Positions 1,556 to 64,000 of a DNA stretch of 64,000 nucleotides are shown here, in pieces. This stretch comes from an uncultured Thermoleophilia bacterium. Its GTDB lineage: Bacteria; Actinomycetota; Thermoleophilia; UBA2241. The stretch spans positions 17,699 to 81,698 of the forward strand of contig CAVOGK010000040.1 of assembly GCA_963695395.1 (NCBI GenBank), read 5' to 3'. Below the pieces are notes generated by a model. It was not told the DNA's origin and did not search any database. It saw only the letters and a list, made by a program, of their open reading frames with translations. Every line of letters starts with the position of its first letter. The stretch's first letter is position 1. Both the position numbers and the translations under genes were made by a program.

Positions 1556-1648
1556 GAGGGGCTCCTTGTGTGACCGCTCGGGGTCACTCGGTGAAGTCGA
1601 TCTGGACGCGGTCCCGGACCAGCGTCCGGCGAACCGGAGGCGCGCGGC

Positions 1649-3124: not shown

Positions 3125-3140
3125 AGCACCATCCCGTCAG

Positions 3141-4514: not shown

Positions 4515-5186
4515 CGGCCGGCCTCGACAGCCGTCGTGGCCTCCACATGCGCGAGCGCGAGGTCCACGGCGTCCGCCGCCGTCTGCCCGTAGCCGTCGGC
4601 GCCGATCTCCTCGGCCCATCCGGCGGTCGTCGGGCCTCCGCCCACCATCACGTAGTAGTCAGCCCTGCTTCCCCGGGCCTCCAGGTACTGGATGACGTCC
4701 TGCTGCTGCGCCATCGTGGTGGTCATGAGCGCCGAGAGGGCGATGATGTCCGCCTTCGCCTTCTCGGCCGCCTCGACGAACCCGGCCGCCGGTACATCGC
4801 TGCCGAGGTCGATCACCTCGAAGCCCGCCGTCTGCAGCATCGTTGCCACGATGCTCTTGCCGAGGGAGTGCACGTCGCCCTTGACCGAGCCGAGGACGAC
4901 CTTGGCCTTGGCCTCGCCCCCTCGCCCCTGGGCGGCGAGCAGCGGGCCCAGGAGGTCCATGCCCTCCTGCCAAGCGTCGGCTGCCATCATCATCTCGGGC
5001 AGATACACCTCAGAGCGCTGGAACTGCTCGCCGACCTCCCGGAGCCCCGGGATCATGCCGTCGTCCAGGAGAGCGCCGGGGTCCGCGCCTTCGTCCAGCC
5101 CCGCTGGATCAAAGGCCGCACTTCGTCGAACCCCCATCGACGAATGCCGCGCGGATGCGCTCGACGGCGCTGGGCCTGTCAGTCAT
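4511..5186 (-). CDS. B12-binding corrinoid protein (MtmC/MttC/MtgC-like); N-terminal cap split over three frames as assembled
   Basis: DxHxxG...SxL...GG signature: GDVHSLGKS, ALSALMTTT, VMVGGGP. The cap-helix sequence MTDRPSAVERIRAAFVDGG (frame from ATG 5186), FDEVRPLIQRG (second frame) and LDEGADPGALLDDGMIPGL (ORF-track frame) only joins if one base is added in each of the C-runs 5131-5135 and 5099-5102. Confidence 0.8.
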
Positions 5187-11590: not shown

Positions 11591-12538
11591 TCACACGCTC
11601 TTCAGGCGCTCGACGAGCGCCGGCACCACCTCGTAGAGGTCGCCGACCAGGCCGTAGTCGGCCATGGCGAAGATCGGCGCCTCCTTGTCCTTGTTGACGG
11701 CGGCGATCAGCTTGGCGCCGGCCACGCCGACGGTGTGCTGGATCTGGCCGGAGACGCCGACGCTCAGGTAGAGGTCCGGCGCCGTCTTGGCGCCGGAGAG
11801 GCCGATGATGCGATCCTCGCCGAGCCATTCGAAGTCGGCGAGGCTCTTGGTGCAGCCGACGACGGCGCCGAGGGCGCCCGCGAGCTCGTCGCCGAGGGCG
11901 AGGTCCTCGCGGGCGTTGAAGCCGCGCCCGACACCGACGATGAGCGGCGCCGCGTCGAGATTGACGTGGTCGCCTTCCTTGGCGCGCCTGTCGACGACCT
12001 TAACCGTCGAGCTGACGTTGAGACTTGGCGTCTGGACCCCTCCCGCCCCGGCCGTCGCGCCCTCGGCGCTGAACGTCTTGGGCATGACGGCGAACACCTT
12101 GACGGGCGTCGCGATCTTCTCGCGCGCCACGGTGGCGCCGCCGAAGGCGTAGCGTGCGGCGACGAGCTCGCCGCCCTCCGCCGCGAGGCTGTTGACGTCG
12201 GAGACGCAGCCCGCGCCGAGCTTCTGCGCCAGCCGCGGCGCCGTCTCCTTGCCGCGGCGCGTCGAACCGACGAGCACGACGCTCGCGCCGGCCTGCTCGG
12301 CGATCTGCGCCAGGCCGGCGGCCACGGCGTCGGCCGGCCAGCCCTCGAAGGCGGCGTCTTCGCTCACGTACACGGTGTCGGCGCCGGCCGCGGCGAGCTC
12401 GCTCGCCGCGGTTCCGGCTCCCGGGCCCAGCGCCACGGCGCTCACGCCGAGGCCGAGGGCCGCACCCAGTTCCTTACCACCGGCGACCAGTTCGCGGGCG
12501 GTATCGAGTCTCTCGCTGTAGACGAGCAGCTCAGCCAT
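11591..12538 (-). CDS. etfA: Electron transfer flavoprotein alpha subunit (FixB-type)
   Basis: Start at MAELLVYSE (ATG 12538), 315 aa. C-terminal FAD-binding block LYLSVGVSGQIQHTVGVAGAKLIAAVNKDKEAPIF. Confidence 0.9.
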   Translation of the reverse strand: MAELLVYSERLDTARELVAGGKELGAALGLGVSAVALGPGAGTAASELAAAGADTVYVSEDAAFEGWPADAVAAGLAQIAEQAGASVVLVGSTRRGKETAPRLAQKLGAGCVSDVNSLAAEGGELVAARYAFGGATVAREKIATPVKVFAVMPKTFSAEGATAGAGGVQTPSLNVSSTVKVVDRRAKEGDHVNLDAAPLIVGVGRGFNAREDLALGDELAGALGAVVGCTKSLADFEWLGEDRIIGLSGAKTAPDLYLSVGVSGQIQHTVGVAGAKLIAAVNKDKEAPIFAMADYGLVGDLYEVVPALVERLKSV

Positions 12539-12540
12539 CG

Positions 12541-13314
12541 TTACCTCCCCAGGACGCCTTCTTTGATGAGGGCGTTGACGAAGGCGTCGGCCTGCTCGGC
12601 CGCGCTCCCGTCGAACAGGATGTGCTTGCGGTCCTGCTCCTCCGCCAGGTTGCTGACGATCTCGCGCACGGGCGCCGGCGCGTCCAGCCCGAGGTCGGCC
12701 AGCGACCACACCTGCAGCGGCTTGCTCTTGGCCTTCATGATCTGCATGAGGCCGGGGATGCGCGGCTCGTTGATCTCGCTGACCACGGTGACGGCCGCCG
12801 GCAGCGGCGCCTCGAGCGTCTCGATCATGTCGTCCATGCTGCGCTCGCAGCGCACCACGCCGTTCGCGGACTCGACCTTGCGCGCGTAGCCGATCTGCGG
12901 CAGGCCGAGCAGCTCGGCGACGCGAGGGCCGACCTGACCGGTGTAGTTGTCGCTCGAGCCCTCGCCGAAGAGCAGCAGGTCGCAGGCGCCGAGCTTCTCG
13001 ACGGCGGCGGCGAGCGCGACGGCCACCGCCGCCTGGTCGGGCTCGGCCAGCGCCGGATCGTCGATGACGACGGCCTCGTCGGCGCCCATGGCGAGCGCGA
13101 CCTTGATGTCTTCGGCCGCCTTGCGGTTGCCCTCGGCGAGGCACAGGGCGACGACCTTGCCGCCCACGGCGTCGCGCAGCACGACGGCCGCCTCGAGGGC
13201 GTTCTTCTCGAGATCGCCGATCTTGTACGGCACGGCCTCGGTGACCGCCTCGCGATTCTTGATGCGGACCATCTGGAGGTCCGGGTTGGTCTTCACGCAG
13301 ACGACGATGTCCAC
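12541..13314 (-). CDS. etfB: Electron transfer flavoprotein beta subunit (FixA-type)
   Basis: 257 aa, MDIVVCVKTNPD...GEGSSDNYTGQVGPRVAELLGLPQ. Two-nt gap to etfA. Confidence 0.9.
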   Translation of the reverse strand: MDIVVCVKTNPDLQMVRIKNREAVTEAVPYKIGDLEKNALEAAVVLRDAVGGKVVALCLAEGNRKAAEDIKVALAMGADEAVVIDDPALAEPDQAAVAVALAAAVEKLGACDLLLFGEGSSDNYTGQVGPRVAELLGLPQIGYARKVESANGVVRCERSMDDMIETLEAPLPAAVTVVSEINEPRIPGLMQIMKAKSKPLQVWSLADLGLDAPAPVREIVSNLAEEQDRKHILFDGSAAEQADAFVNALIKEGVLGR

Positions 13315-13343
13315 GCTTCACCCCTTTCGTCACGGTCGCCCGT

Positions 13344-13625
13344 TCAGCTCATCCGGTACTGGACCCCGAAGGGGCCGCTCGGGTACTTCCACGTGAGGGC
13401 GCGGTGATCGCAGCAGATCATGCAGGTGCCGCACTCGAGGCAGCCCTCCCAGTTGACGGTCATGCGGCCCTGGTCGTCGCGCTCGTAGAGGTCGGCCGGG
13501 CACACGTAGACGCAGGCCTCGTCCTTGCAGACGGCCTTGCACACGTCGGTGTCGATGACGATGTGCGGCTCCTTGTCGAGCTTGAAGACGTCGAGGCCGA
13601 GCTTGGCGTCGATCTTCATCGGCAT
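13344..13625 (-). CDS. fixX: FixX-type ferredoxin-like protein
   Basis: 93 aa, MPMKIDAKLGLDVFKLD...CKAVCKDEACVYVCPADLY...CLECGTCMICC. GGAGG RBS. It is the last 93 codons of the composite 13344-16619 ORF. Confidence 0.85.
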   Translation of the reverse strand: MPMKIDAKLGLDVFKLDKEPHIVIDTDVCKAVCKDEACVYVCPADLYERDDQGRMTVNWEGCLECGTCMICCDHRALTWKYPSGPFGVQYRMS

Positions 13626-13636
13626 GGCTCCTCCCC

Positions 13637-14927
13637 TCAGATCTTCCGCATCGACCAGGCGTCCTTGACGGTCGCCACGTTCATGAAGTCGCGCCTCGCA
13701 CCCCGCCAGGCCTTCTTGAAGAGGCCGGCCTGCGGCCGCTCGTCGATGGTGTAGATGCTCTCGAGCAGCCGAGAGACGGCCTTCGGGTAGTGCGTGAACA
13801 GGCGCGGGTTCTCCATGAAGTTCGGGATGGCGCGCGCCGTCTCGAGGTCCTTGAGCACGAAGCTCTCGCGCAGGGACGCCTCGTAGCTCGCGAGGCCGGC
13901 GGCCGAGAAGTCGCCGGCCGCCTTTGCCCTCTTGACCGCCTCGGCGGCGTAGTAGCCGCTGGCGATGGCGAAGTCCATGCCGCGCACGGTGACGAGAGCG
14001 TTGAGACTGAGCCCGGCGGTGTCGCCGGCGACCAGGTAGCCGTCGCCGGCGAGCCTGGGCACCTGGCTGATGCCGCCCTCCGGGATGGCGTGCGCCGAGT
14101 ACTCGGCGACTGTGCCGCCGGCGACCAGCGGCCGGATCTGGGGCAGCTCCTTGAACTCGTCGAGGAGCTGCCAGCTCTCCGTGCCGTCGCGCCGGCCGCG
14201 CAGCGCCTCCATCCCCACGACCATGCCGAGCGAGATGCTCTCCTTGTTGGTGTAGAGGAAGCCGCCGCCCATCATGCCCCTGGTGCACTCGCCCATGAAG
14301 AGCTGGGCGGCGCCCTCGCCGGGGTTGAGGTGCCAGCGGTCCTCGATCACGCCCGCCGGCAGCTCGATGATCTCCTTGTAGCCGAGCGCGTGGTGCTTCG
14401 CCTGCGGCTCGGCCGCGAGCCCGGCCGCGCTGCTGAGCAGCCGCAGCACGCCCTCGGCGACGATGACGACGCTGCGCGCCGATCTCGTCGCCGCCGGCGC
14501 GGATGCCGATGATGCGGCCGTCCTTGCGCAGCAGCTCGTCGACCTTCATGTTGGGCACGACCATCGCGCCCTTCTCGGTGACCTTCTCGGCGAGCCACTG
14601 GTCGAGCTTGGCGCGCACGACCGTGTAGCTCTGCGGCCGCTCGCCGGTGAACCGGTCCGAGGCGATCTCGACGGTCGTGTGGGCGCCGGGAGCCATCATC
14701 GTGACCAGCTCGCGCGCCACGGGGCGCTCGAAGGGCGCCTCGTCCCACAGCTCCGGGTAGAGGCCGCGGATGGGCTTCACGTACAGGCGCCCGCCGGTGA
14801 CGTTCTTGGCGCCCGAGTAGTCGCCGCGCTCGAGGACCATGACCTCGACGCCGGCCGACGCCAGGCCGTAGGCCGCGGAGAGGCCGGCGAGGCCGCCACC
14901 GACGACGATGCATTCGACTGTTTCCAT
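13637..14927 (-). CDS. fixC: FixC-type ETF:quinone oxidoreductase-like flavoprotein, one frame break as assembled
   Basis: N-terminal METVECIVVGGGLAGLSAAYGLA (FAD fold) in one frame down to GDEIGA. The continuation SVVIVAEGVLRLLSSAAGL...GYLVAGDTAG is in the frame of ORF 13637-14449. The span is 1291 nt, not a multiple of 3, and the break lies at ~14470-14480. Confidence 0.8.
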
Positions 14928-16186
14928 GTGGCGGCCTCCTCCCGGCCTTCGTCGCAATCCTTGAACGGGTTGTGCGTGTCGCCCCACTCGTCGCGGGCGA
15001 TGATGCCGCGCATGATCATCAGGCCGCCCTCGGCGCCGACCTCGTAGCTCATGACGCCGCGGAGCAGCATCTCGAGCGGCGTCTCCTTGGTGTAGCCGAA
15101 GGCGCCGTGGTACATCATCCCGTGGCGGGCGATGTCGTGGCACAGGGCCGGAGCGAGGCACTTGCAGGTGCTGATGACCTTGTTGATCTCCTTGCGGCCG
15201 AACTGACCTGGGCTGGTGTGCTCCTGGCCGATCATCCAGGCGCCGCGCAGCAGGTTCAGCTTGAGCATGTCGAGCTGCATCCAGTCGTCGGCCATCTCGA
15301 AGCTGATGCCCTCGTTCTTGCCCAGCGGCTTGCCGAAGGTCGTGCGCTGCGCGGTGTACTCGCCGCTGATCTCGAGCGCCTTCTCGGCGCCGCCGAGGCA
15401 GGCCGCGACGACGAGCACGCGGGCGGCGTTGAAGCCGTCCATGTTGACGTAGAAGCCCTTGCCCTCTTCGCCGAGGACGTACTTGCGCGGCAGCTCGACG
15501 TCCTTGTAGATCCAGCCGCCGGTGCTGAGGCCCATGCGGCCCATGTCCTTGTACGTGGTGTAGGTGATGCCGTGCAGGTGGGCGGGCACCCAGATGAAGG
15601 TCATGCCCTTGTGACCCTGCGCGGGGTCGGTCTTGACCAGGGTGCAGTGACCGCTCGGCGGACCCCACTTGGCGCACTCCTTCGGGCCGGAGACGTAGGC
15701 CTTCTCGCCGTTCATGACGAAGGCCTGCTTCTCCTCGTTCCACGGGGCGATCGTCTTGATGGCGCCGAGGTCGGAGCCGCCGCCGGGCTCGGTGGTGTTG
15801 ATGCCGGCGAACGCCTTGCCGGCGGCCACGGCCGGGAGCACTTCCTGCTTCAGCTCGTCGGTGCCGTACCGGTTGATGATGTACGACCAGCCGATGGTGA
15901 GCAGCGTGTAGACGGGCGTGCTCATGCTGAGGTCGGCGCGGGCGATCTCGTGCACGGTGATCATCGCGTAGATGAGGCGCTCGTCGTCGGGGAGCGGCAT
16001 GCCGCCGTACTCCTCCGGGATGGTCACGCCGAACATGCCCAGCTCGGCCATGCCGGCGGTGATGTCGTCCGGGATGCCGTCCTCGGCCTCGTCGATGGCG
16101 CGGGCGCGCGGCTCGAGGTTCTTGGTCAGCCACTCGCGGATGGCCTGACGGTACATCTCCTGCTCGGTGGTGTAGCGGAAGTCCAT
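14777..16186 (-). CDS. Acyl-CoA dehydrogenase family protein (3' end uncertain)
   Basis: The ACAD fold is recognisable throughout (AGINTTEPGGGSDLGAIKT, catalytic-base region VMSYEVGAEGG). The last ~50 codons are Ser/Ala/Arg-rich and overlap the fixC start by 151 nt. Confidence 0.82.
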   Translation of the reverse strand: MDFRYTTEQEMYRQAIREWLTKNLEPRARAIDEAEDGIPDDITAGMAELGMFGVTIPEEYGGMPLPDDERLIYAMITVHEIARADLSMSTPVYTLLTIGWSYIINRYGTDELKQEVLPAVAAGKAFAGINTTEPGGGSDLGAIKTIAPWNEEKQAFVMNGEKAYVSGPKECAKWGPPSGHCTLVKTDPAQGHKGMTFIWVPAHLHGITYTTYKDMGRMGLSTGGWIYKDVELPRKYVLGEEGKGFYVNMDGFNAARVLVVAACLGGAEKALEISGEYTAQRTTFGKPLGKNEGISFEMADDWMQLDMLKLNLLRGAWMIGQEHTSPGQFGRKEINKVISTCKCLAPALCHDIARHGMMYHGAFGYTKETPLEMLLRGVMSYEVGAEGGLMIMRGIIARDEWGDTHNPFKDCDEGREEAATWKQSNASSSVAASPASPRPTAWRRPASRSWSSSAATTRAPRTSPAGACT

Positions 16187-54099: not shown

Positions 54100-54528
54100 T
54101 CAAGCAGGCGGCGGCACCACCAGCACCGGGACCGGGCTCCGCTGGATGACGCCGAAGGCCGTCGAACCCAGCAGCAGCCCCCTGATCCTGCCCTCGCCAC
54201 TGGAGCCGACGACGATGAGGTCCGCGTCACGCTCCTCGGCCAGGCTGACGAGTGCCTGCACGGGGGCAAGCGGCACCGCCACGGCCTCCATGAGCTGGCA
54301 GGCGTCACCACAGCCGTCCATCACTTTGCGCATGCCCAGCTCGCAGGCTGCGCGCGTCTCTTCCCATCTGAATTCCTGCTCGGGAACGCGCCGCGGCGCG
54401 TAGTTCGGGGCCAGGCCGCTCGCGACTACGATGCGGCCGTCGAACTTCTTGGCCATCACGACCGCCGCGTCGAGGGCCGCTTTAGAGGCTTCCGAGTCGT
54501 CGAAACCGACGATGATCGTGTATGCCAT
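54100..54528 (-). CDS. Universal stress protein (UspA family)
   Basis: 142 aa. MAYTIIVGFDDSEASKAAL...DLIVVGSSGEGRIRGLLLGSTAFGVIQRSPVPVLVV. Confidence 0.85.
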   Translation of the reverse strand: MAYTIIVGFDDSEASKAALDAAVVMAKKFDGRIVVASGLAPNYAPRRVPEQEFRWEETRAACELGMRKVMDGCGDACQLMEAVAVPLAPVQALVSLAEERDADLIVVGSSGEGRIRGLLLGSTAFGVIQRSPVPVLVVPPPA

Positions 54529-54674
54529 GACTGGTTCCTCCTTCGTTCAGGTCGCACGCAACGGTCCATATGGACCGCCGCGTGCTCTTGACACGTGCTC
54601 GACACTACCGCTCTTCCCGTTCGGCGCCCCGACCTGACACTCGCGGGCGCTCACGGCGAACCCAGATCGATACG

Positions 54675-55469
54675 TCACCTGTCGCACAGGAACGCCCGCA
54701 CGACCGCGGTGAACGCGTGGGGGTCCTCGACATAGGGCATGTGACCCGCCCCCTCAAACACGTACAGCTCCGCGCCCTGGATGTGATCGGCGATCTGCTC
54801 TGCACAACGCGGAGGCGTGCAGATGTCGAGCGACCCCACCGTGACCAGGGTCGGGCACTCGATGCGGTGGAGCCTGTCTCGGGTGTCGTGGGTCAGCAGA
54901 GCCTCGGCCGACCTGCAGAACGCATCGACCGATTGGGCGTGAGGGTTCGCGACTGCGTCTGCCGCCCAGTCGTCGATCGTGCCTTCATCGTAGATGCGTG
55001 GCGCCAGGAACCAGACGTTGACGGCCACGAAGAAGTCATGCGGCGTAGGGGCGGCGCGGGCCAGCATCTGCCAGCCGCGGACCTCTTCCTGGAAGTGGCG
55101 ATCACTCACGCACCAGGTACCGTGCAGCACCAGCGTGCTCACCAGGTCGGGGTAGCGGAGCGCGAGTTCCTGGGCGATCGCTCCACCCATGGACGACCCT
55201 ACGACATGGGCCCGGGGGATGCCCAACACCTTCATCAGAGCCGCGGCATCCTCCGCGAACTGCGCGATGCTGTACTCCCCGTCGGGAGTCGAAGAGCGAC
55301 CGACTGCGCGGTTGTCGAACGTCGTGACGCGGTACGAATCGCTGAGCTCGGCAGCCTGCTCTGCCCAGCATGAGCCCTCGTCCGCGAGGCCGGCGATGAA
55401 GAGGACATCGGGGCCGTGACCGACTTGATCGACCCAGAGGTCGAGGTTCCCGATAGAGATCAAGGTCAT
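54675..55469 (-). CDS. Alpha/beta-fold hydrolase
   Basis: Start at MTLISIGN (ATG 55469). Nucleophile elbow VVGSSMGG, HGP oxyanion-type GHGPDVLFIAG, and C-terminal GAGHMPYVE. Confidence 0.8.
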   Translation of the reverse strand: MTLISIGNLDLWVDQVGHGPDVLFIAGLADEGSCWAEQAAELSDSYRVTTFDNRAVGRSSTPDGEYSIAQFAEDAAALMKVLGIPRAHVVGSSMGGAIAQELALRYPDLVSTLVLHGTWCVSDRHFQEEVRGWQMLARAAPTPHDFFVAVNVWFLAPRIYDEGTIDDWAADAVANPHAQSVDAFCRSAEALLTHDTRDRLHRIECPTLVTVGSLDICTPPRCAEQIADHIQGAELYVFEGAGHMPYVEDPHAFTAVVRAFLCDR

Positions 55470-55534
55470 AGCAAGACACCCCTTCCCGGCATCACGGCCA
55501 CAACAGCCTCGTCGATCGGCCCGACATCCTCCTC

Positions 55535-56557
55535 TCAGTACTTCGCGAGCGCGCAGGTCTCGATCATGGTTCGCACGTTCTCGATCGGCGTCTCGACACC
55601 GATGTCGCACCCGCCGGCTACGACGAATCCACCCCCTTCCCAGCCCTTGTCGATGCACTCCTCTGTGTCTCGGCGGACCTTCTCCGGACTGCCCATGAGC
55701 AGCGTGTCCGAGGGATCCACGTTCCCGATCAGGCAGATCGAGTCGCCGATCGCCTCCTTGACGAGCGCCACGTCGGCCGCGTAGTCGAAGGTGAAGGCTG
55801 CCGGCGCGATCTCCTTCACGTACGGGAGTATCTTCGTCGTGTCGCCGCAGACGTGGAGGATCGGCTTCAGTCCCAATTCCTTCACAGCTGCGCTCACACG
55901 CTTGGTCGAAGGCATCGCGAATCTGGCGAAATGTTTGGGCGAGACGACCGATCCGGAGGCGGACGGGTCGCAGATGGTCAGCCCGTGGACTCCGAGCGAC
56001 GCGTAGAGCCTCACCTCATCGATGACCACCTCGGTAGCGAAGTCCAGGAGCTCGTCGACCGCGTCCGGGCGATTGTAGAGGTCCGTCATGAGCTCGCTGA
56101 CTCCTCGCAGGTAGCTCGCCAGCGTGAACGGGGACGGGATGGTGGCGTAACAGAAGACTTCTTCCGCGAACTCTCTGAGCAGGATCTCGGCGCTGATCAC
56201 CGTGGCTTCAACCCGCTGGTCGGCTGTCCGATCGACGGCGCGCAGCCTGTCGACGTCCACGCCCGAGCTGAGCACGTGCTCCACGACGATGGGCTGGCCC
56301 GAGTCGGTGATCCTCGACCTGCACCCGAGCAAGTCGATGTTCATGATCCAGTCCCATACGACCTCGATGGCGTCGAACGGGCAGTCTCTCTGCGCCTCGG
56401 CGATCGCCTGGGCAGCCTTCTGGGGCTCGGCCAGGGAGGTGGGAATGGTCACCCCGAAGGCATCAAGCGCCCAGAAGCCCTGGAACGGCGGCGCCACCGG
56501 TACCTGGTCTGGGCGGTCGAGCGCCAGCGCCGTCTCGAATCTCTGTCGTCCATTCAT
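55535..56557 (-). CDS. URO-D-fold (MtaA/MtbA/CmuA-N/O-demethylase-type) corrinoid methyltransferase, copy 1
   Basis: GGGAG RBS plus ATG at 56557, 340 aa. MNGRQRFETALALDRPDQVPVAP...ICDPSASGSVVSPKHF...ILHVCGDTT...IGNVDP. Confidence 0.78.
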   Translation of the reverse strand: MNGRQRFETALALDRPDQVPVAPPFQGFWALDAFGVTIPTSLAEPQKAAQAIAEAQRDCPFDAIEVVWDWIMNIDLLGCRSRITDSGQPIVVEHVLSSGVDVDRLRAVDRTADQRVEATVISAEILLREFAEEVFCYATIPSPFTLASYLRGVSELMTDLYNRPDAVDELLDFATEVVIDEVRLYASLGVHGLTICDPSASGSVVSPKHFARFAMPSTKRVSAAVKELGLKPILHVCGDTTKILPYVKEIAPAAFTFDYAADVALVKEAIGDSICLIGNVDPSDTLLMGSPEKVRRDTEECIDKGWEGGGFVVAGGCDIGVETPIENVRTMIETCALAKY

Positions 56558-56639
56558 GCGTACTCCCTCGCGTTCACTGGACTTGGGGGCGGCCGCGTCG
56601 CGACCTTCAGACTCACACCCCGCGACGGGCCAAGGCCGG

Positions 56640-57296
56640 CTACATGCGCCGAAGCGACCCGACCATCTTGATGGCTTCAGAGACCGCGTTCGTGGGATTG
56701 TCCGCGTAGCCGTCCGCGCCGAACATGTCCGCGATCTCGCCGGTGACGGGAGCGCCACCGATCAGGATCTTCACGTCCGGGTTCTTCTCCCGCAGCGTCA
56801 CGATGGCCTTCTTCATGCCCAGCATGGTCGTGGTCATCATCGCCGAGAGCGCCACGATGTCCGCGTTGGTGGATATCTGCTTCTCGACGAATTCGTCGAT
56901 GGGCACATCGGAGCCCAGGTCGTGGACGGTGAAACCCGCGACCTCGAACATCATCTTGACGAGGTTCTTGCCGATGTCGTGGACGTCGCCCTCCACGACC
57001 CCGATGACCACCTCGCCCCTGACGGTCTCGCGACCTGTCATGTCGACGTGGGGCCTCAGGATGTCGAGGCCTGCATAGAGTGCATCGGCGCTCATGAGGA
57101 CCTCGGGCACGAAGTACTCCTGAGAGTCGAAGAGTTCGCCGACGACCTCCATCCCGGCGGCAAGACCGTCGAGAATCGCCGTGTAGGCGTCGTAGTTCTC
57201 GTCGACGACGGCCTGGGCCGCCGCTCTCACCTTGTCCTCGTCGAAGTCGATGACGCCCTGCTTCATGTCGGCGAGCAACTGATCCATGTCAGACAT
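56640..57296 (-). CDS. B12-binding corrinoid protein
   Basis: 218 aa. Cap helices, then GVVEGDVHDIGKNLV (DxHxxG), ALSAMMTTT and ILIGGAPV. Confidence 0.88.
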   Translation of the reverse strand: MSDMDQLLADMKQGVIDFDEDKVRAAAQAVVDENYDAYTAILDGLAAGMEVVGELFDSQEYFVPEVLMSADALYAGLDILRPHVDMTGRETVRGEVVIGVVEGDVHDIGKNLVKMMFEVAGFTVHDLGSDVPIDEFVEKQISTNADIVALSAMMTTTMLGMKKAIVTLREKNPDVKILIGGAPVTGEIADMFGADGYADNPTNAVSEAIKMVGSLRRM

Positions 57297-57384
57297 ATGG
57301 TCCTCCTGTCCGCCTGAGCCTCCGAGCCGGAGGCCCGGCTGAAGCTCCTCCCTGGCGGTTGATCGGTTGATTCCTTTGCGCCCG

Positions 57385-58413
57385 TCAGGCCTTGTGTCGT
57401 GGCGTCATCGCCTCGGTCGCGACGACCCACTCCCTGAGGTTCTCCACCGGCGTGTCGGGCCAGATGTCGCATCCCGGCCACACGGAGTCCACGTAGGGGG
57501 CGACCTCCGCCACGGCTTCACGTACGCCCTCGGGTGTGCCCTGGGAGAAGACTTCCCACGGATGCACGTTGCCGAGGATGACTGCTTCGGGGCCCAGCTT
57601 CTCGCGGCTGAGGGCGATCGTGTTCTTCTGGTCGACCGACACCGCATCGGCGCCGAGAGCCGCCATGTCTTCGATGATCATGTCCGTGCTGCCGCAGATG
57701 TGGTACACCGTCGGCAGGTCCCAAGTCGCGAGGATCCGCTCCGAGTAGCTCTTGATCAGCTTCTTGAACGAGCGAGGGGACAACACATCGGAAGTCGCGC
57801 CCATCTCGCGCAAGACCATGTAGTCCGCACCGGCGTCGATGTAGATCCTGGACTCCTGGATCAGGGCTTCTGTGAACTTCTCGAGCAACTCGGCCGCCCT
57901 CGCGGGCTCCTTGAGCGTGGTCTTGAGGGCCTCGTTGAGGTCCATGCTCTGGCCCGACAACGTGAAGGGCCCGAGGACCCACGAGCCGACCGCGACGTCG
58001 TCCCCGTAGCGCTCCTTGAGCTTCCTGATCGCCTCCGCCACCACGGGCACCCGCCCGGCGCTCGACCAGTCCTCCGGCATCCTGATATCGGAGGCCTCGT
58101 GGACGTACTTGTCCCGGAGCGTCGGATACAGGATGTCCTCCGAGTGCGGGTAGGTGTTGAGGGTCGCGCCGAGCGCTTCAGCGGTGACGCCCATGTCGAA
58201 GGGCACGTTGACCGAGGCCGTCCCGATGAGCTCGTGTGTGGCGGAAGCGGCGTCCGCCATCTCCTGCGCGTCGAGGTGGACGTGGGCGAAGCGCAGGTCG
58301 TACTTCTCCAGGCCCGCCACGACGACGTTGCCGAAACCGCTGAACGCCGGAACCTTGTCCACCGGCAGACCCTTGATGATGTTGAGTGCGCGTTCCTTGC
58401 TCGTCATTGTCAT
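57385..58413 (-). CDS. URO-D-fold corrinoid methyltransferase, copy 2
   Basis: 342 aa. MTSKERALNIIKGLPVDKVPAF...YMVLREMGATSDVLSPRSF...VYHICGST...LGNVHP. Confidence 0.78.
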   Translation of the reverse strand: MTMTSKERALNIIKGLPVDKVPAFSGFGNVVVAGLEKYDLRFAHVHLDAQEMADAASATHELIGTASVNVPFDMGVTAEALGATLNTYPHSEDILYPTLRDKYVHEASDIRMPEDWSSAGRVPVVAEAIRKLKERYGDDVAVGSWVLGPFTLSGQSMDLNEALKTTLKEPARAAELLEKFTEALIQESRIYIDAGADYMVLREMGATSDVLSPRSFKKLIKSYSERILATWDLPTVYHICGSTDMIIEDMAALGADAVSVDQKNTIALSREKLGPEAVILGNVHPWEVFSQGTPEGVREAVAEVAPYVDSVWPGCDIWPDTPVENLREWVVATEAMTPRHKA

Positions 58414-58492
58414 GCGTTCACTCCTCGATTCAAGATGATCGGCCGGCCTGGCGCGCAGTCCCGCGTCGCGACCCGCTCCCGGCTCCGCGTAG

Positions 58493-59452
58493 TCACTTCT
58501 CGCCCTTCAACGTCTTGACGAAGTCCGGGAACAGCCTGCACACGGGCGCCAGTTCGTTCTCCGTCAACTCGCCGGTCTCGGCATAGTGCATGGTCGAGAC
58601 CATCGTGTGAGCGGCTGCGACGGCCGGAAAGACGTGGTCGTTGCCCCACATCGGGCCGCTGAAGATGAAGTCGCCCCACAGCGCGATCGTCGCCGCGTGA
58701 GTCGCGGCGTCGACGGCGGCGAACGCGGCCTCGCCCCAGGTGTCCAGGTTCTCCTTCCACACCGATTTCTGCCACATGTACGTGCCGTTGGCGGAAGCCG
58801 CTCCCGCCGGGAGGCCGTACTTCTCTTTCACCAGCCGGTTGGAGAGAGCGCAGATACCGGTGGAGGGCAGGTTCATCACTGAAGTGTCGACCAGGATACT
58901 TTCGAAATTGCCGGGCGCAAGCTTGGGGAGCATGTCGTCCAGGGCCGACATGCGACCGCTGGGGAGCTGGTCGACCATGTCCATCACCACAGCGCAGACG
59001 TGTTTGACGCCGAGTTCCCGGATCTGCTCGACCTCGGCGGACACGTCGGGGCTCCAGACAGTCACGGAGTTGTAGAGCATCCGGTCCAGAAGGCCCAGCT
59101 CGGCAACGTAGCGTGTGGCCTCGATGCGCGGCTCGAGCTTCCACATGTCGATGGCGAACGGGATGTCAGTCGTCTCGACGTAGAAGTCCACGTACGCCTT
59201 CATCTCGTCGGCGGAGTTGGCCACCATGGCCACGATCACCGGCATACCCGTCAGTTCGGAGAGCACTTCCAGGCGCCTGATCTGCTCGGTCGCCATCGTC
59301 TTGTCGAACAGACGCTTCTGACGGCTTTCCACACAGGGGTCGCCCTTCTGGAAGAGCGACGGCATGACCAACGGCGGGTTGACGCCCGGCTGCCCGCCGA
59401 CCTTGACCTTCCCGATCGAGAAGACCTGCTGCTCCTTGTCAAATGTGAACAT
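58493..59452 (-). CDS. MtrH/CmuB-like methyl-tetrahydrofolate (pterin):corrinoid methyltransferase
   Basis: Start at MFTFDKEQQVFSIGKVKVGGQPGVNPPLV (compare the MtrH N-terminus MF.FDKEQ....G.KFGGQPGE), 319 aa. Confidence 0.83.
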   Translation of the reverse strand: MFTFDKEQQVFSIGKVKVGGQPGVNPPLVMPSLFQKGDPCVESRQKRLFDKTMATEQIRRLEVLSELTGMPVIVAMVANSADEMKAYVDFYVETTDIPFAIDMWKLEPRIEATRYVAELGLLDRMLYNSVTVWSPDVSAEVEQIRELGVKHVCAVVMDMVDQLPSGRMSALDDMLPKLAPGNFESILVDTSVMNLPSTGICALSNRLVKEKYGLPAGAASANGTYMWQKSVWKENLDTWGEAAFAAVDAATHAATIALWGDFIFSGPMWGNDHVFPAVAAAHTMVSTMHYAETGELTENELAPVCRLFPDFVKTLKGEK

Positions 59453-59489
59453 GCACTCACCCTTCGTCAGGTTCTGAGCCCGGCAGGAA

Positions 59490-61475
59490 TCATTCCGACT
59501 TGACGAGGCCGGCGAGACCTTCGGCCGCCAGGACCGAGGCAAGGTTCGCGAACTCGTCCTTCATGTGTGGGATATGCATCGCGCGTGCGAAGTCGTTCTG
59601 GAACGTGGGCTCGACGGAGAGCTCGACGTACTCGATCTTCCGGGCCCAGTAGTCCGCCTCGAGACGCTTCTCCGCGTCCAGAAGCGCCATGCGCGCACCG
59701 TCGCCGGCGGCATTGCCCACCGCGAACACCTTGTCCACGGGAACGTCGGGGAACATGCCGATCACCAGAGACTCCTCGCGGTCGATGAAAGACCCGAAGG
59801 CGCCGGCCAGCACGACCCGATCCAGGGCGTCGTAGCCCAGCTTCTTCATCATGATCTTCGCGCCGGCGTACATGGCCCCCTTGGCCAACTGCACGGCCCG
59901 CACGTCCCCGATCGTCATGGTGACGTCGCGCCCGATGGACGTCTCTTCGGCCCACGCGAGGACGAACTCGTCCCCTCCTTCGCCCTTGCGCACCCGCGGG
60001 CTGTCGATGTCCTTGTGGAACCTGCCGGACTTCTCGATGATGCCAGCCTTGAACAGCTCGGCGACGCCGTCGATGATGCCCGAGCCGCAGATGCCCTTGA
60101 CGCCGATCTCCTCGGGCGCCATCTCGTCACTCCAATTGTCGTTGCCGATGATCTTGTAGCGAGGTTCCTTGGTCTCCGGGTTGATGTAGATCTTCTCGAT
60201 GGCCCCCGGAGCCGCCCGCATCCCGAAGTTGATCTGGGCTCCTTCGAACGCGGGGCCCGTGGCGCAGGACGAGGAGATCAGGCGGTCCTTGTTGCCCATG
60301 ATGAGCTCGCCGTTCGTGCCGATATCGATGATCAGCTGGCGGTCTGCGCGCTTCCAGGGTTCTTCCGCGATGAGCACGCCGACGTTGTCGGCGCCGACGA
60401 AACCGGCTTCGTTCGGCAGCACGAACACGTTGGCGCCCGGGCAGAACTCCAGGCCGAGGTCGCGCGCCTTGATGTTGATCGAGTGGTGGAGCGACGGGGC
60501 ATACGGGGCCATGCCCAGGTTCTCGGGATAGATGCCGAGGAAGCAGTGGTGCATCGCTGTGTTGAAGACGATGGCCAGCTCGAGGATGTCCTCGTTGGTG
60601 TGACCCGCCGCGACCGCCACTCGGGCGGCGAGCGTGTTGACGCCCTCGATGATCGCGGCCTGGAGCTTGTCGATGCCGTCATCGTGGGACATCGCGTAGG
60701 TGATGCGGCTCATGACGTCCTCGCCGTACGGCACCTGCGGATTCATCATGGAGTCGTAACCGATGACCTCGCCGCTCTCGAGATCACACAGGTAGGCGGC
60801 CACGGACGTCGTGCCCACGTCGACCGCGAGTCCGATGCTCCGCTCGAGCTTGCCGGGCGCGACGCGCACGATCTCCGCTGCCGGGCCACCGGTCCAGATC
60901 GAGACCGACACCTTCCAGTCCCCCGTGCGGAGCGTGTCGGCGAGGCCCACCAGGACCCTGTAGTCGAGAATGGGGCGCTCGAGGCCGTGTTGCGCCTTCA
61001 AGGCGTCGCACAACCGCTCGTAGTCGCCCAGCGGGTCGTGCAGCGTGGGCGGGATCATCTCGACGTAGTACGTGCGCACCGAAGGGTTGACGTTGATCTT
61101 GCGATCGGTCACCGCCTTGCGCACGACCTGCCCGCCGACGCGCGCCTCCTCGGGAACGAAGACCACCAGGTCCCCGTGCACCTCGGCCACGCAGGCCAGT
61201 CGATAGCCCTCGGCCTGGCGCTCGGTCGTGAAGAACTTGTCCTCCACCGGCTTGTGTCCAGAGACGTGGGTGGGCGACGACACGACGCCGAACTTCTCGA
61301 AGATGCCGTCTTCGATGCGGACCTTGCACTTGCCGCACGTGCGCTTCTCGCCGCAGACCGCTTCGATGTCGACGCCGAGCTCGCGGCTGGCGTCCAGGAT
61401 CGACTTCCCGTCCTCGATCTGACCGCGGCTGCCGGACGGCTGGAAGATCACCATATGCGTCTTGTTGTCACTCAA
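59490..61475 (-). CDS. RACo-type ATP-dependent reductive activator of corrinoid proteins (2Fe-2S ferredoxin + ASKHA ATPase, DUF4445)
   Basis: 661 aa. N-terminal plant-type ferredoxin CGEKRTCGKCKV...LAC, and ASKHA phosphate motifs LAVDVGTTSVAAY and IIDIGTNGELIMG. The start overlaps the upstream stop by 8 nt. Confidence 0.85.
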   Translation of the reverse strand: MSDNKTHMVIFQPSGSRGQIEDGKSILDASRELGVDIEAVCGEKRTCGKCKVRIEDGIFEKFGVVSSPTHVSGHKPVEDKFFTTERQAEGYRLACVAEVHGDLVVFVPEEARVGGQVVRKAVTDRKINVNPSVRTYYVEMIPPTLHDPLGDYERLCDALKAQHGLERPILDYRVLVGLADTLRTGDWKVSVSIWTGGPAAEIVRVAPGKLERSIGLAVDVGTTSVAAYLCDLESGEVIGYDSMMNPQVPYGEDVMSRITYAMSHDDGIDKLQAAIIEGVNTLAARVAVAAGHTNEDILELAIVFNTAMHHCFLGIYPENLGMAPYAPSLHHSINIKARDLGLEFCPGANVFVLPNEAGFVGADNVGVLIAEEPWKRADRQLIIDIGTNGELIMGNKDRLISSSCATGPAFEGAQINFGMRAAPGAIEKIYINPETKEPRYKIIGNDNWSDEMAPEEIGVKGICGSGIIDGVAELFKAGIIEKSGRFHKDIDSPRVRKGEGGDEFVLAWAEETSIGRDVTMTIGDVRAVQLAKGAMYAGAKIMMKKLGYDALDRVVLAGAFGSFIDREESLVIGMFPDVPVDKVFAVGNAAGDGARMALLDAEKRLEADYWARKIEYVELSVEPTFQNDFARAMHIPHMKDEFANLASVLAAEGLAGLVKSE

Positions 61476-63571
61476 TCGTAGCCTCCCCTTGCCGGGCTCG
61501 TGCCTGCTGCGTCAGGACCTCCGCGAGATCGAGGACCGCAAAGGCCTCGCCTCTGTCCTTGGCGCCGTCCGAGAGCATGGTCATGCAATAGGGGCACGCG
61601 GTGGCGACGGTGTTCACCGCGGCCTCGACGGCCTCCTCGGTCCTCATGTGGTTGATGCGCTTGCCCTCGGGTTCCTCGAGGAAGACGCGGCCGCCGCCGC
61701 CGCCGCAGCAGAATGACTGCGCGCGGGCGCGAGGCAACTCCACGAGATCGAGGCCGGATACGGACTGGAGCACCTCTCTGGGCTGCTCGTAGATGTCCTC
61801 ATAGCGGCCCAGGTAGCAGGAGTCGTGGTACGCGATGCGTCCGAGGTCTCGCGACGCGGTCCTCGCGGCCAATCGTCCTTCCCGGAGCAGTCGGGCCAGC
61901 AACTCAGAGTGATGGACCACCTCGTAGTCTCGTTCCCCGTACTCATGCTTGAGGACGCGGTAGCAGTGGGGGCACGTGGCCACGACGTGTGCCGCCCCCG
62001 TCGCGGCGATGGCCGCCGAGTTGTCCTCGGCCAACGACTGGAACAGGAACTCGTTGCCCAGACGGCGGGCCGGGTCGCCACAGCACTTCTCGTCCGTACC
62101 AAGCGTGGTGAACGGCACGCCCGCCTCCTCGAGGAGGGCGGTGAACGCACGCGCCACCTGCTGGTTCCTCTTGTCGAAGGCGCCGGCGCATCCGACCCAG
62201 TACAGCCAGGTCTCGCTCACGGCGTCCCGCCTTCCGGCCCCGCAGCGACGGTGGGATCCGAGGGCGCGTCCACGCCGCCGGGGGAGCCGGCGGCCCATGC
62301 TCCCTGTCCGCCCAGCCGATGCCCCATGGGTTGTAGTTGGTCTCGATGTTGCGCAGGGCGAGCTGTCCCTCGGAGGGGATGGCCCCGGCGATCATGACGA
62401 GGAATTGACGCAACTCCACGAGCAGAGGGGCGTGCTCTATGTACACAGGGCACGCCTGTGCGCAGGCGCCGCACGTGGTGCACGCCCAGATCACGTTGTG
62501 CTCGATGGAACTCGGTCCCGAGGCCTCGGCGCCAACCTGAGCCCCGTCACCGGGGGCCTCCGGCTCGGCGTCTTTCGAGCGGGTCCCCAGCCGCCAGGTG
62601 AGCTGCGCGTCCTCGAGCCAGCGCCGCAGGTCGAGGACCACCTGCTTGGGAGTCAGGGCCTTGCCCGAAGCGTATGCGGGGCAGACATCCTGACACCGAC
62701 CGCAGCGCGTGCACGCCTCGAGCGCCAGGCGCGCCCGTCTGTCCAGCTCCGCCACGTCCCCGAGACCGTAGAGCTCCTTGGTCTCGTCGTTGAAGTCGAT
62801 TGCCGCGATCCTGCCCTTCCACGTGCGGTCCGCCGCGCTCATCTGGTTGGCCGGTGCCGTGGCGAGGTGCAGGAGCTTGGTGAACGGGACGATGGCGATC
62901 AGCACACAGGCGGTCAGCAGGTGGAACCACCAGAGCACCTGGTAGGTCACCTCGAGTGAGTCGGGGGACAGACCCGAGAACAACGCCGATAGAGCCCACC
63001 CCACGGGGCTCCAGAGCTCCCATTCGTCGGGGACGGCGGCCATGCGGATGCCCTCGAGCATGAACCCGACGGCGAGCACCACCAGGAGGGCGCCGAGGAC
63101 GACCAGGTCGTCGGGGCGGTTGTCCAGCCGGCTCGGCCGGATCAGATAACGGCGGACCATCGCCATGACCACGCCGATGACTGCCGCGAGGCCGAGCGCG
63201 TCCAGCGCCAGTGAGAGCCAGAGGTAGAAGTCACCCTGAAAGACCGGCAACCCAAGGTCAGCCTTCAACAGCACCATGAGCGTTCCGAAGGCCAGGACCA
63301 GCATGCCCCACAGGATGAACAGGTGCATGAGACTGGCGTAGAGGTCGGTCCAGAAGCGTCGCTGCAGGAATCCGTCGACGATGAGCGCGCGCGCGCGGCC
63401 CCAGCCCGACGACGCCAGAGCGCCACTCGCCCCGAGACGGATCAGGCGCACCCGTGCCCACATGCCGTAGAGGAACACGGCAGTCGCAAGCACCGCGGGC
63501 ACGTACAGCCATTCGTGCCCGGGAATCGCCCAGTAGATCTCTCGCGTGACCACTGACGCCTCTCCCACCAC
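61468..63571 (-). CDS. EtfD/HdrD-like membrane-bound Fe-S oxidoreductase (TM domain + 2x[4Fe-4S] + two CCG domains), two frame breaks as assembled
   Basis: GTG at 63571. About 5-6 TM helices. CTRCGRCQDVCP and CTTCGACAQACP. After NPWGIGWADRE the reading moves through a short third-frame piece (AWAAGSPGGVDAPSDPTVAAGPEGG) into ORF 61468-62298, which carries WLYWVGCAG, EKCCGDP, ATCPHC, SFCCGGGGG and ACPYC. Confidence 0.78.
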
Positions 63572-63575
63572 GCCG

Positions 63576-64000
63576 CTAGCTCTCCTCGTTCATGCGTCGC
63601 AGCTCAGCGGCGAGCGCCGGAGCCAGCTTGTACAGGTCGCCGACCAGCGTGTAGTCGGCCTCTTCGCACATGGGGCAGTCCGGATCCTTGTTGATGGCGA
63701 CGATCACGCGTGACGAGCCCATGCCGGCGAAGTGCTGGATCGCTCCGGAGATCCCGCAGGCGACATAGAGATTGGGCGAGACGGCCTTGCCCGTCTGCCC
63801 GACCTGGTGATCGACGCTGATCCACCCGGAATCCACGGCGACGCGGGACGCACCGACGGCTCCGCCCAGGGCATCCGCCAGTTCCTCGATCACCGCGAAC
63901 CCCTGCGCGTCACCGAGGCCGCGGCCGCCCGAAACGATGATCTCCGCCTCTTGGAGGCTCACACGACCGCCAGTCTTGACCGACGTCTCCACGACCGTCG
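63576..64000 (-). CDS. etfA: Electron transfer flavoprotein alpha subunit, C-terminal part (gene continues past the right edge)
   Basis: [10 protein letters not shown]...[11 protein letters not shown]...[41 protein letters not shown]. Stop is 4 nt before the EtfD-like start. Confidence 0.85.

Follow-up and report, generated by a model that had tools for sequence, protein, structure and literature searches.

Does a corrinoid activase whose gene follows those of an electron transfer flavoprotein (ETF) and its membrane partner without a gap draw its electrons from them, or have two separable modules come to share one operon? The question is raised by one end of a 64,000-nucleotide stretch of DNA (the window) from an uncultured Thermoleophilia bacterium (assembly GCA_963695395.1, contig CAVOGK010000040.1), where etfA and an EtfD-like oxidoreductase run directly into the gene for a RACo-type ATP-dependent corrinoid reductive activase and a set of corrinoid methyltransferase genes. 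Here we describe the domain content, gene order and overlapping junctions of this region, its conservation and the separability of its modules. We somewhat favour the view that, in one lineage, two separable modules were fused to give a single inducible catabolic operon, in which ETF and EtfD would drain dehydrogenase electrons to quinone. The first-pass annotation of the window knew of no description of such a link, and full-text searches likewise turned up, in the library covered, no paper that connects ETF with RACo or corrinoid activation, and none on such systems in Thermoleophilia.

Conservation and separability of the two modules

The RACo alignment was scanned against one genome per GTDB species, and the 80 best loci, together with seven earlier loci, were annotated by tblastn with the proteins of locus L001. 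The block acyl-CoA dehydrogenase (ACAD)-EtfB-EtfA-membrane Fe-S subunit-CCG subunit-RACo is shared, overlapping junctions included, by four other loci; their RACo proteins have 74-90% identity to that of the window (L001, 90%; L002, 80%; L011, 75%; L003, 74%). L011 is a species-representative genome, while L001-L003 are contigs of RACo homologues from Thermoleophilia metagenome-assembled genomes (MAGs). The string seen in the window, whose conservation in related genomes the first-pass annotation had singled out as a check, therefore recurs in four Thermoleophilia loci and extends there up to etfB and ACAD. The CCG and RACo genes overlap by 4-11 nt in these relatives, and synteny between L001 and the window continues through Usp, lysA, hom and pfk. 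Among the 87 annotated loci, these four are the only ones with the ACAD-ETF-EtfD block upstream of RACo; the ETF block is absent in other Thermoleophilia (L004/5, L008-L010, L012-L014 and L062). The arrangement is beyond chance, because the same block with overlapping junctions recurs in four other loci. By neighbour joining, the RACo proteins of the five ETF-linked loci group as a single clade, which points to one fusion event having joined the modules.

Each module also occurs without the other. RACo is accompanied by some or all of the MtrH, URO-D and corrinoid protein genes, with no adjacent same-strand ETF, in other Thermoleophilia, Chloroflexota, Dehalococcoidia, Nitrospirota, Deltaproteobacteria and archaea, and 79 of the 80 best species-representative loci are without the ETF block beside RACo. 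A metagenome scan with the CCG subunit, in which the matches listed are 42-52% identical to the window protein, samples the wider EtfD-like family and not its close clade; among the matches listed, etfBA adjoins 8 of 80 EtfD-like loci, and no RACo or methyltransferase lies near any of the 80. Closer in type are two loci whose EtfB shares the motif AIDDA[MLA]GEV with the RACo-linked EtfB. The first, L092 (ACAD 71% identical), reads permease, glutamine synthetase (GS)-like, ACAD, GS-like, Fe-type alcohol dehydrogenase (Fe-ADH), EtfB, EtfA, a fused EtfD of 672 aa and GntR, with neither RACo nor methyltransferase; the second, L093 (ACAD 62%), reads transporter, SDR, ACAD, EtfB and EtfA and is also free of RACo. 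Across L092:2541-13641, an APC permease, the two GS-like genes (of gamma-glutamylation type) and the Fe-ADH are set around the ACAD/ETF/EtfD subtype. The gene content of these relatives suggests that the module may serve amine or amino-alcohol catabolism there.

The closest relatives of the window's RACo (P0003 and its kin, 91% identity) lie on contigs L174-L179, from six samples, in the order DUF1638, 3HCDH, CobO, an 83-aa open reading frame (ORF), RACo, MtrH, UROD, corrinoid protein and UROD. TetR, permease, ACAD, ETF and EtfD are all missing from these contigs. The 83-aa ORF (L174:4241-4492; likewise in L175-L179) overlaps the RACo start, and its end corresponds to the final 58 CCG codons, at 71% amino acid identity. 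DNA homology between the L174 type and L001 stops at L001 position 1692 and resumes at 9816, inside the CCG gene; a deletion of ~8.1 kb has removed everything from TetR through three-quarters of the CCG gene. Because of this in-frame remnant and of a breakpoint that falls inside the CCG gene, the L174-L179 lineage evidently descends from an ETF-linked ancestor and lost the block by deletion. All of the RACo and methyltransferase genes that fit on the contigs are intact, and the RACo system evidently persists without an adjacent ETF/EtfD. The retained CCG stretch hints that RACo expression depends on it, via translational coupling or a promoter.

Gene content and junctions of the locus

From 54.6 kb to the window edge, all credible genes are on the minus strand (ORF listing and Pfam scan; Table 1). 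The EtfA stop lies 4 nt ahead of the EtfD start, or 22 nt ahead if the alternative GTG at 63553 is used, which is equivalent to the start called for the L001 membrane subunit. The TTG start of RACo overlaps the stop of the CCG (EtfD) gene by 8 nt and is preceded at 6 nt by a GGGGAGG Shine-Dalgarno sequence inside the end of that gene. After RACo, the spacings are, in order, 37, 79, 88, 82 and 65 nt. The gaps and overlaps of the first-pass annotation are all reproduced from the ORF listing, and its view that the genes are packed as one operon holds: there is zero intergenic space at the EtfD/RACo junction, and no sigma-70 promoter-like or intrinsic-terminator-like site was found between 54 and 64 kb, a scan that we treat as weak because its consensus is of the E. 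coli type, the host being an actinobacterium of 65-70% GC. The methyltransferase/RACo part (window 54500-61500) has a GC content of 0.63-0.65, compared with 0.69-0.74 for the flanking housekeeping genes, and this lower value fits a separate evolutionary history of the module.

Table 1. Genes of the ETF-RACo string and of the second ETF system, in window coordinates.
Feature	Position	Strand	Basis
etfA 3' part (ETF alpha, FAD-binding domain)	63576..64000	-	Pfam ETF_alpha 2e-36; runs past window edge
EtfD-like membrane subunit (NarI-like transmembrane + 2x[4Fe-4S])	62217..63571	-	Nitrate_red_gam 1e-10, Fer4_10 1e-11
EtfD-like CCG subunit (two CCG domains, HdrD/TfrB/GlpC-like)	61468..62220	-	Pfam CCG 9e-37, two stretches
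RACo-type ATP-dependent corrinoid reductive activase	59490..61475	-	Pfam, all four RACo domains
MtrH-family methyltransferase, likely MT2 (MtoA/MtgA/CmuB-like)	58493..59452	-	Pfam MtrH 9e-45
URO-D copy 2 (MtaA/CmuA-family, URO-D fold)	57385..58413	-	Pfam URO-D 2e-56
Corrinoid (B12-binding) methyl-carrier protein	56640..57296	-	Pfam B12-binding_2 + B12-binding
URO-D copy 1 (MtaA/CmuA-family), likely substrate-specific MT1	55535..56557	-	Pfam URO-D 7e-64
Alpha/beta-fold hydrolase, closes gene string	54675..55469	-	Pfam Abhydrolase_1 6e-30
Second ETF system: ACAD	14777-16186	-	
Second ETF system: FixC-like ETF-quinone oxidoreductase	split near 14450	-	
Second ETF system: FixX-like ferredoxin	~13344-13630	-	
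Second ETF system: EtfB	12541-13314	-	
Second ETF system: EtfA	11591-~12540	-	

In L001, L002 and L003 the EtfD-like protein comes from two genes that overlap by 4 nt; there, the orthologues of the membrane/Fe-S subunit are intact (442-444 aa) and those of the CCG subunit measure 249-251 aa; both subunits also match L011, at the same coordinates (tblastn). This bears on the worry, raised by the first-pass annotation, that frame breaks at ~62220 and ~62300 might mark a pseudogene. A pseudogene reading of the break at ~62220 is ruled out, as this is a natural gene boundary (GTGA) at which the TGA at 62219-62217 overlaps the GTG at 62220-62218. The break at ~62300 is a true 1-nt deletion, 'GAC AGG G-A GCA TGG' standing where relatives read D-R-A-A-W (alignment to L001), in a tail of low conservation about 27 codons ahead of where the membrane subunit natively stops. 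That part of the worry stands, as assembly error or as mutation. An assembly indel is plausible because the FixC-like gene elsewhere in the window (~14450) is likewise frameshifted and related MAG contigs carry split genes (several on that of L003), and we consider an assembly error at least as likely as pseudogenisation. Pseudogene-looking breaks in MAG sequence should be compared with relatives before they are believed.

In the membrane subunit, Nitrate_red_gam spans residues 88-242, and the L001 orthologue matches NCBIfam narI at 6e-10; TfrB is the top NCBIfam match of the L001 CCG orthologue, far under its cutoff. The domain set of EtfD (NarI-like, 4Fe-4S dicluster and two CCG domains) is complete, yet it is spread over two overlapping genes and not carried on one polypeptide. 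The EtfD-like genes lie directly downstream of etfA in all five loci, and the split pair is predicted to work like EtfD, as a two-subunit variant.

The part of etfA in the window has 79% nucleotide identity with the gene for the full L001 EtfA (328 aa), which is preceded by EtfB and ACAD. The ACAD directly upstream of etfB measures 439-440 aa in relatives (295 aa in L003, where the call is truncated), and a TetR regulator and an APC-family permease lie further upstream in L001, L002 and L011. Because ACAD lies just upstream of etfB in relatives, the ETF would have an ordinary electron donor that is invisible in the window. An exact-sequence look-up with the corrinoid protein of the window gave no match, and what lies past the edge is described from orthologous loci. 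The etfB of the window lies beyond its edge, and the motif described here is that of the orthologues, the L001 ETF region having 79% DNA identity to the window. At the nucleotide zipper, EtfB of L001, L002, L003 and L011 reads IDDAMGE (D-D-A-M-G-E). In bifurcating ETFs the EtfB zipper D-G-[D/E]-T-[A/G]-Q, whose Thr is 100% conserved, binds the second FAD, and in canonical (group 1) ETFs EtfB carries D-D-D-x-N-Q at the AMP site, with Asn 98% conserved (PMC8958531). The RACo-linked EtfB has neither: the bifurcating motif is missing, and Gly and Glu replace the Asn and Gln of the canonical one. By this motif, the RACo-linked ETF appears to be outside both well-studied groups. The four best Protein Data Bank (PDB) matches of EtfA are all bifurcating ETFs (6fah, 7koe, 5ol2 and 4kpu), while for EtfB CarD and the non-bifurcating W3A1 ETF are tied; a bifurcating (Fix-like) role, prompted by the EtfA matches, was rejected on the EtfB motif.

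The ACAD is itself divergent. Its three ACAD Pfam domains are present, but no PDB match is better than 1e-25 and every NCBIfam equivalog falls far under its cutoff, and it may not be a conventional acyl-CoA dehydrogenase. Its distant homologues (41-46% identity, from a MAG, Desulfobacteraceae and Bathyarchaeia) have no common neighbourhood that would hint at its substrate. A second ETF system, of the FixABCX/EtfABCX type, occupies window 11591-16186 on the minus strand (Table 1), and its EtfB motif SDNYTGQVGP keeps the bifurcating Thr, Gly and Gln. Because this set is present in the same window, the RACo-adjacent ETF is not the sole ETF of the cell.

RACo itself (661 aa, of the PF14574 family) has its domains in the order Fer2 (2e-8), RACo_linker (5e-22), Raco_middle (2e-51) and RACo_C_ter (1e-94) by Pfam, an architecture of N-terminal [2Fe-2S] ferredoxin, linker, middle domain and ASKHA ATPase. 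Three Cys residues of its ferredoxin domain, C41, C47 and C50, do not vary across the RACo alignment, and neither does C95. The protein scores 497 bits against the AcsV-like NCBIfam model (NF040756; cutoff 800), which makes it a member of the family and not the CoFeSP-specific AcsV, and its homologues in Thermoleophilia MAGs are 72-91% identical. The MtrH-like protein matches an NCBIfam MtrH-family subfamily at 294 bits, over the cutoff of 287, and in the PDB matches MtrH (8z9u, 3e-43) and Desulfitobacterium hafniense MtgA (6sj8, 4e-34); it is likely a methyl-corrinoid:tetrahydrofolate methyltransferase (MT2). URO-D copy 2 reaches 212 bits with mtaA_cmuA (cutoff 235) and 230 bits with PRK06252 (cutoff 244) in NCBIfam, matches MtaA in the PDB (4ay7, 3e-45) and is conserved beside RACo/MtrH in most of the 87 loci, as part of a core of RACo, MtrH, UROD and corrinoid protein. 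URO-D copy 1 reaches 213 bits with mtaA_cmuA, under the cutoff of 235; its PDB matches are MtaA (2e-24) and the chloromethane methyltransferase CdmB (9rui, 1e-9), and relatives 50-52% identical are present in other ETF-linked loci (tblastn). Copy 1 is likely the substrate-specific methyltransferase (MT1). The corrinoid protein matches pyl_corrinoid at 198 bits and an MtgC-like model at 182 bits in NCBIfam; that of L001 is 95% identical to the one of L174 and 83% to the one of L004, a Thermoleophilia locus without ETF. The hydrolase scores 150 bits against PcaD (3-oxoadipate enol-lactonase; cutoff 256) and is found in L001, L002 and L011 (71-73% identity of L001 to the other two) but is absent from L003.

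Other RACo clusters carry further genes. A QueG/reductive-dehalogenase (RDH)-like 2x[4Fe-4S] protein of ~220 aa is regular in ETF-free RACo clusters (L004:14897-15595, L008:20251-20922, L012, L013 and Nitrospirota); neither the five ETF-linked loci nor any other part of the 64-kb window carries it. The ETF block and this gene are complementary in distribution, because the latter occurs only in ETF-free RACo clusters. In Nitrospirota (L072:4767-17983 and L060:4403-16983), the order is UROD, a 169-aa gene, MtrH, UROD, corrinoid protein, the QueG/RDH-like Fer4 gene and RACo, then a 106-aa Cys-rich protein, (a FolD-like gene), a NarI-like membrane protein and an HdrD/DsrK-like CCG protein; about 20 other loci have a similar layout. 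Next in the Nitrospirota loci are ORFs that, judged from their N-termini alone, resemble cysteate synthase and sulfopyruvate decarboxylase (coenzyme-M-biosynthesis-like). A small Cys-containing protein of ~105 aa lies beside RACo in Chloroflexota, Dehalococcoidia and Nitrospirota loci (L019:9628-9936, L020, L025, L072:12024-12344 and others); it has no NCBIfam match and was not found in Thermoleophilia.

At the other end of the window, a second corrinoid set of the methylamine/quaternary-amine type (248-5182, minus strand) consists of a corrinoid protein (4511-5182), an MtmB-family (3144-4658) and an MttB-family (1652-3136) gene and a class-III aminotransferase (248-1648). It has neither an activase nor an MT2 beside it, and the RACo and MtrH-like genes, 50 kb distant, may serve this set as well.

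Electron flow and the rival readings

The account that we somewhat favour takes the region to be the downstream two-thirds of a long catabolic operon that would have arisen in one Thermoleophilia sub-lineage. Its first module would comprise the TetR regulator, the APC-family permease, the divergent ACAD, EtfB, EtfA and the two-subunit EtfD-like membrane Fe-S/CCG oxidoreductase; ACAD would oxidise an imported, probably nitrogen-containing substrate, and the electrons would pass through ETF and EtfD to menaquinone. The second would be a four-component system of the Mto/O-demethylase type for corrinoid methyl transfer, headed by RACo, in which one or two MtaA/CmuA-family enzymes move a methyl group from an O-, S- or halide-methyl substrate to the Co(I) corrinoid protein and the MtrH-like enzyme passes it to tetrahydrofolate (THF). 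Whenever the corrinoid lapses into the Co(II) state, RACo would reduce it again, spending ATP and a single electron, and this rare electron would probably come from a general cellular donor, not specifically from ETF. The PcaD-like hydrolase would end the operon. The shared operon, regulator and permease suggest that both modules act on the same imported, methylated and probably nitrogen-containing compound.

Several points weigh against this account, in which co-transcription of the two modules is presumed. The ACAD (L001:4664-5986) reads 'LWLGG', with Leu replacing the Glu that is conserved in the 'IYEGT' motif of the Bcd-type enzymes 1buc and 5ol2, a residue which we take to be the catalytic base; at the alternative IVD-type position it has a Lys flanked by Glu-Asp, as read from an alignment holding no IVD sequence. 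No CoA ligase or transferase, hydratase or thiolase is encoded in the operon. The downstream methyltransferase genes are reshuffled among the five loci while the contact of RACo with CCG is constant, which also fits a direct partnership, and ETF/EtfD could have taken the place of the QueG/RDH-like protein as a redox partner.

It has been proposed, in the first-pass annotation, that the linkage reflects a dedicated electron supply. In such a scheme, electrons from ACAD, or from quinol via reverse EtfD, would reach ETF or the Fe-S clusters of EtfD and pass on to the [2Fe-2S] domain of RACo, which with ATP would take Co(II) to Co(I). We find this unsupported and rather unlikely, the ACAD upstream being a presumed ordinary donor. 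Reactivation is rare, so a trickle of electrons would suffice; yet no low-potential output is predicted from this ETF, because its EtfB reads IDDAMGE and not the bifurcating motif, and the redox couples of canonical ETFs are far more positive than about -330 mV. This is the potential of the activase [2Fe-2S] cluster, and in favour of the proposal the literature names only 'e.g. ferredoxin or flavodoxin' as the donor of a RACo-type activase (PMC6739815). The FixABCX-like ETF at 11.6-16.2 kb would be a better source of low-potential electrons. While the CCG stop/RACo start overlap is kept in all five loci despite the rearrangement downstream, the nearest relatives, L174-L179, have deleted the block with RACo and the methyltransferases intact, the same ETF subtype works in ACAD/EtfD modules without RACo (L092, L093), and ETF-free RACo is widespread, in line with the counts given above for the 80 best RACo loci and the 80 EtfD-like matches listed. 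The absence of the QueG/RDH-like gene from the ETF-linked loci, when it is present in sister Thermoleophilia and Nitrospirota clusters, is in the proposal's favour, as are the Nitrospirota clusters that independently pair a NarI-like and HdrD-like membrane module just downstream of RACo; RACo itself, however, has only 7 ETF-clade-specific positions, and the single one in its N-terminal domain is the only clade-specific change in the ferredoxin domain, with no co-evolution signal. No segmental identity switch indicating recombination inside RACo was found.

The same annotation offered an electron sink for methyl-group oxidation, in which electrons of methyl-THF would reach the quinone pool via ETF/EtfD, and this we consider highly improbable. 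Methyl-THF oxidation (about -200 mV) is energetically favourable with menaquinone as acceptor, and in the Nitrospirota locus L072 an ORF that is FolD-like by sequence lies between RACo and the NarI-like/HdrD-like module, but none of methylene-THF reductase (MTHFR), FolD and formate-THF ligase is encoded in or beside the Thermoleophilia operons, nor any other C1-oxidation gene in the operon. The gene upstream of etfB is of the ACAD family and not MTHFR, and L002, L003 and L011 are without the MtrH-like THF methyltransferase, which leaves the idea unsupported at these loci. It is also conceivable that the two halves are adjacent but independently transcribed, the RACo-methyltransferase promoter being inside the CCG 3' end and the overlap a relic of compaction. 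The last ~180 nt of CCG, kept in frame before RACo in L174-L179, may hold sequences for RACo expression as this would require; an 8-nt stop/start overlap with a Shine-Dalgarno sequence in the upstream gene is nevertheless typical of genes whose translation is coupled on one mRNA, all five loci keep the junction, and the promoter and terminator scan, for all its E. coli-type consensus, came up empty, so that we hold independent transcription to be quite unlikely.

On the ordinary reading, Mto/O-demethylase-type systems are common in uncultured Thermoleophilia and can be recruited into larger respiratory catabolic operons, beside a divergent ACAD, ETF and two-subunit EtfD. Should ETF/EtfD prove to be the reductant of RACo, the RACo-type corrinoid reactivases would gain their first known dedicated electron donor, and it would become clear how corrinoid methyltransferases are sustained in respiring bacteria that have no generator of low-potential ferredoxin. 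Such upkeep is little explored in non-fermentative, probably respiring bacteria. The locus is a clonable candidate for the question of the RACo donor, with natural variants that have the block (the window and L001) or are without it (L174-L179).

Comparison with known systems

The module fusion, the split EtfD and the divergent ACAD are new, while each half of the operon is a known kind of system. For an electron supply to a corrinoid, the functional analogy is the cobalamin-dependent methionine synthase, in which flavodoxin or methionine synthase reductase gives the single electron that rescues Co(II), a flavoprotein donor. There, the uphill step is driven by S-adenosylmethionine methylation and not by an ASKHA ATPase, the donors are of flavodoxin type and not ETF, and there is no homology. 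The bifurcating ETF-quinone reductase FixABCX/EtfABCX is the known low-potential electron route for nitrogenase or ferredoxin in respiring bacteria (PMC8958531, PMC10734219), and the proposed electron supply to RACo would require a route of this kind. It resembles the RACo locus in combining ETF with a membrane-associated quinone reductase; the RACo locus differs in having neither FixC nor FixX, an EtfD of another family and an EtfB without DGDT[A/G]Q.

The upstream half is closer to the ACAD-EtfBA-EtfD/DUF224 (ETF:menaquinone oxidoreductase) modules, of which we take EtfD Rv0338c of M. tuberculosis and Swol_0696-0698 of Syntrophomonas wolfei to be examples. A further ACAD-EtfBA-DUF224 cluster is that of D. 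hafniense (ACL20883-20886; PMC9888536). The likeness is in the order of ACAD, etfB and etfA, followed by a membrane Fe-S protein with NarI-like, 4Fe-4S dicluster and two CCG domains, whereas here EtfD is split, the ACAD is divergent with Leu, and RACo follows without a gap.

For the downstream half, the chloromethane systems CmuAB and CdmBCA and the glycine-betaine system MtgABC share an MT1 of the MtaA/CmuA or MttB family, a corrinoid protein or domain and an MtrH-like methyl-corrinoid:THF methyltransferase. The CdmB match, however, is a weak one (1e-9), NCBIfam MtgA and MtgC are far under their cutoffs, and those systems are without ETF linkage. The same parts list is found in Mto of Methermicoccus shengliensis, Odm of Acetobacterium dehalogenans and the O-demethylases of D. 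hafniense. MtoABCD comprises an MtrH-like MT2, MT1 paralogues within the MtaA/MtsA/CmuA phylogeny, a corrinoid protein and an activase that begins with a 2Fe-2S domain (PMC8630106). In the window such a set of MT1, corrinoid protein, MtrH-like MT2 and activase is encoded together, where RACo corresponds to MtoD/AE, the MtrH-like protein to MtoA, the two URO-D proteins to MtoB1/B2 and the corrinoid protein (~22-kDa) to MtoC. Unlike these systems, the one described here is hosted by a high-GC Thermoleophilia MAG, has an APC amino-acid-type permease upstream in place of an MFS aromatic transporter, and is fused at its 5' end to ACAD-EtfBA-EtfD.

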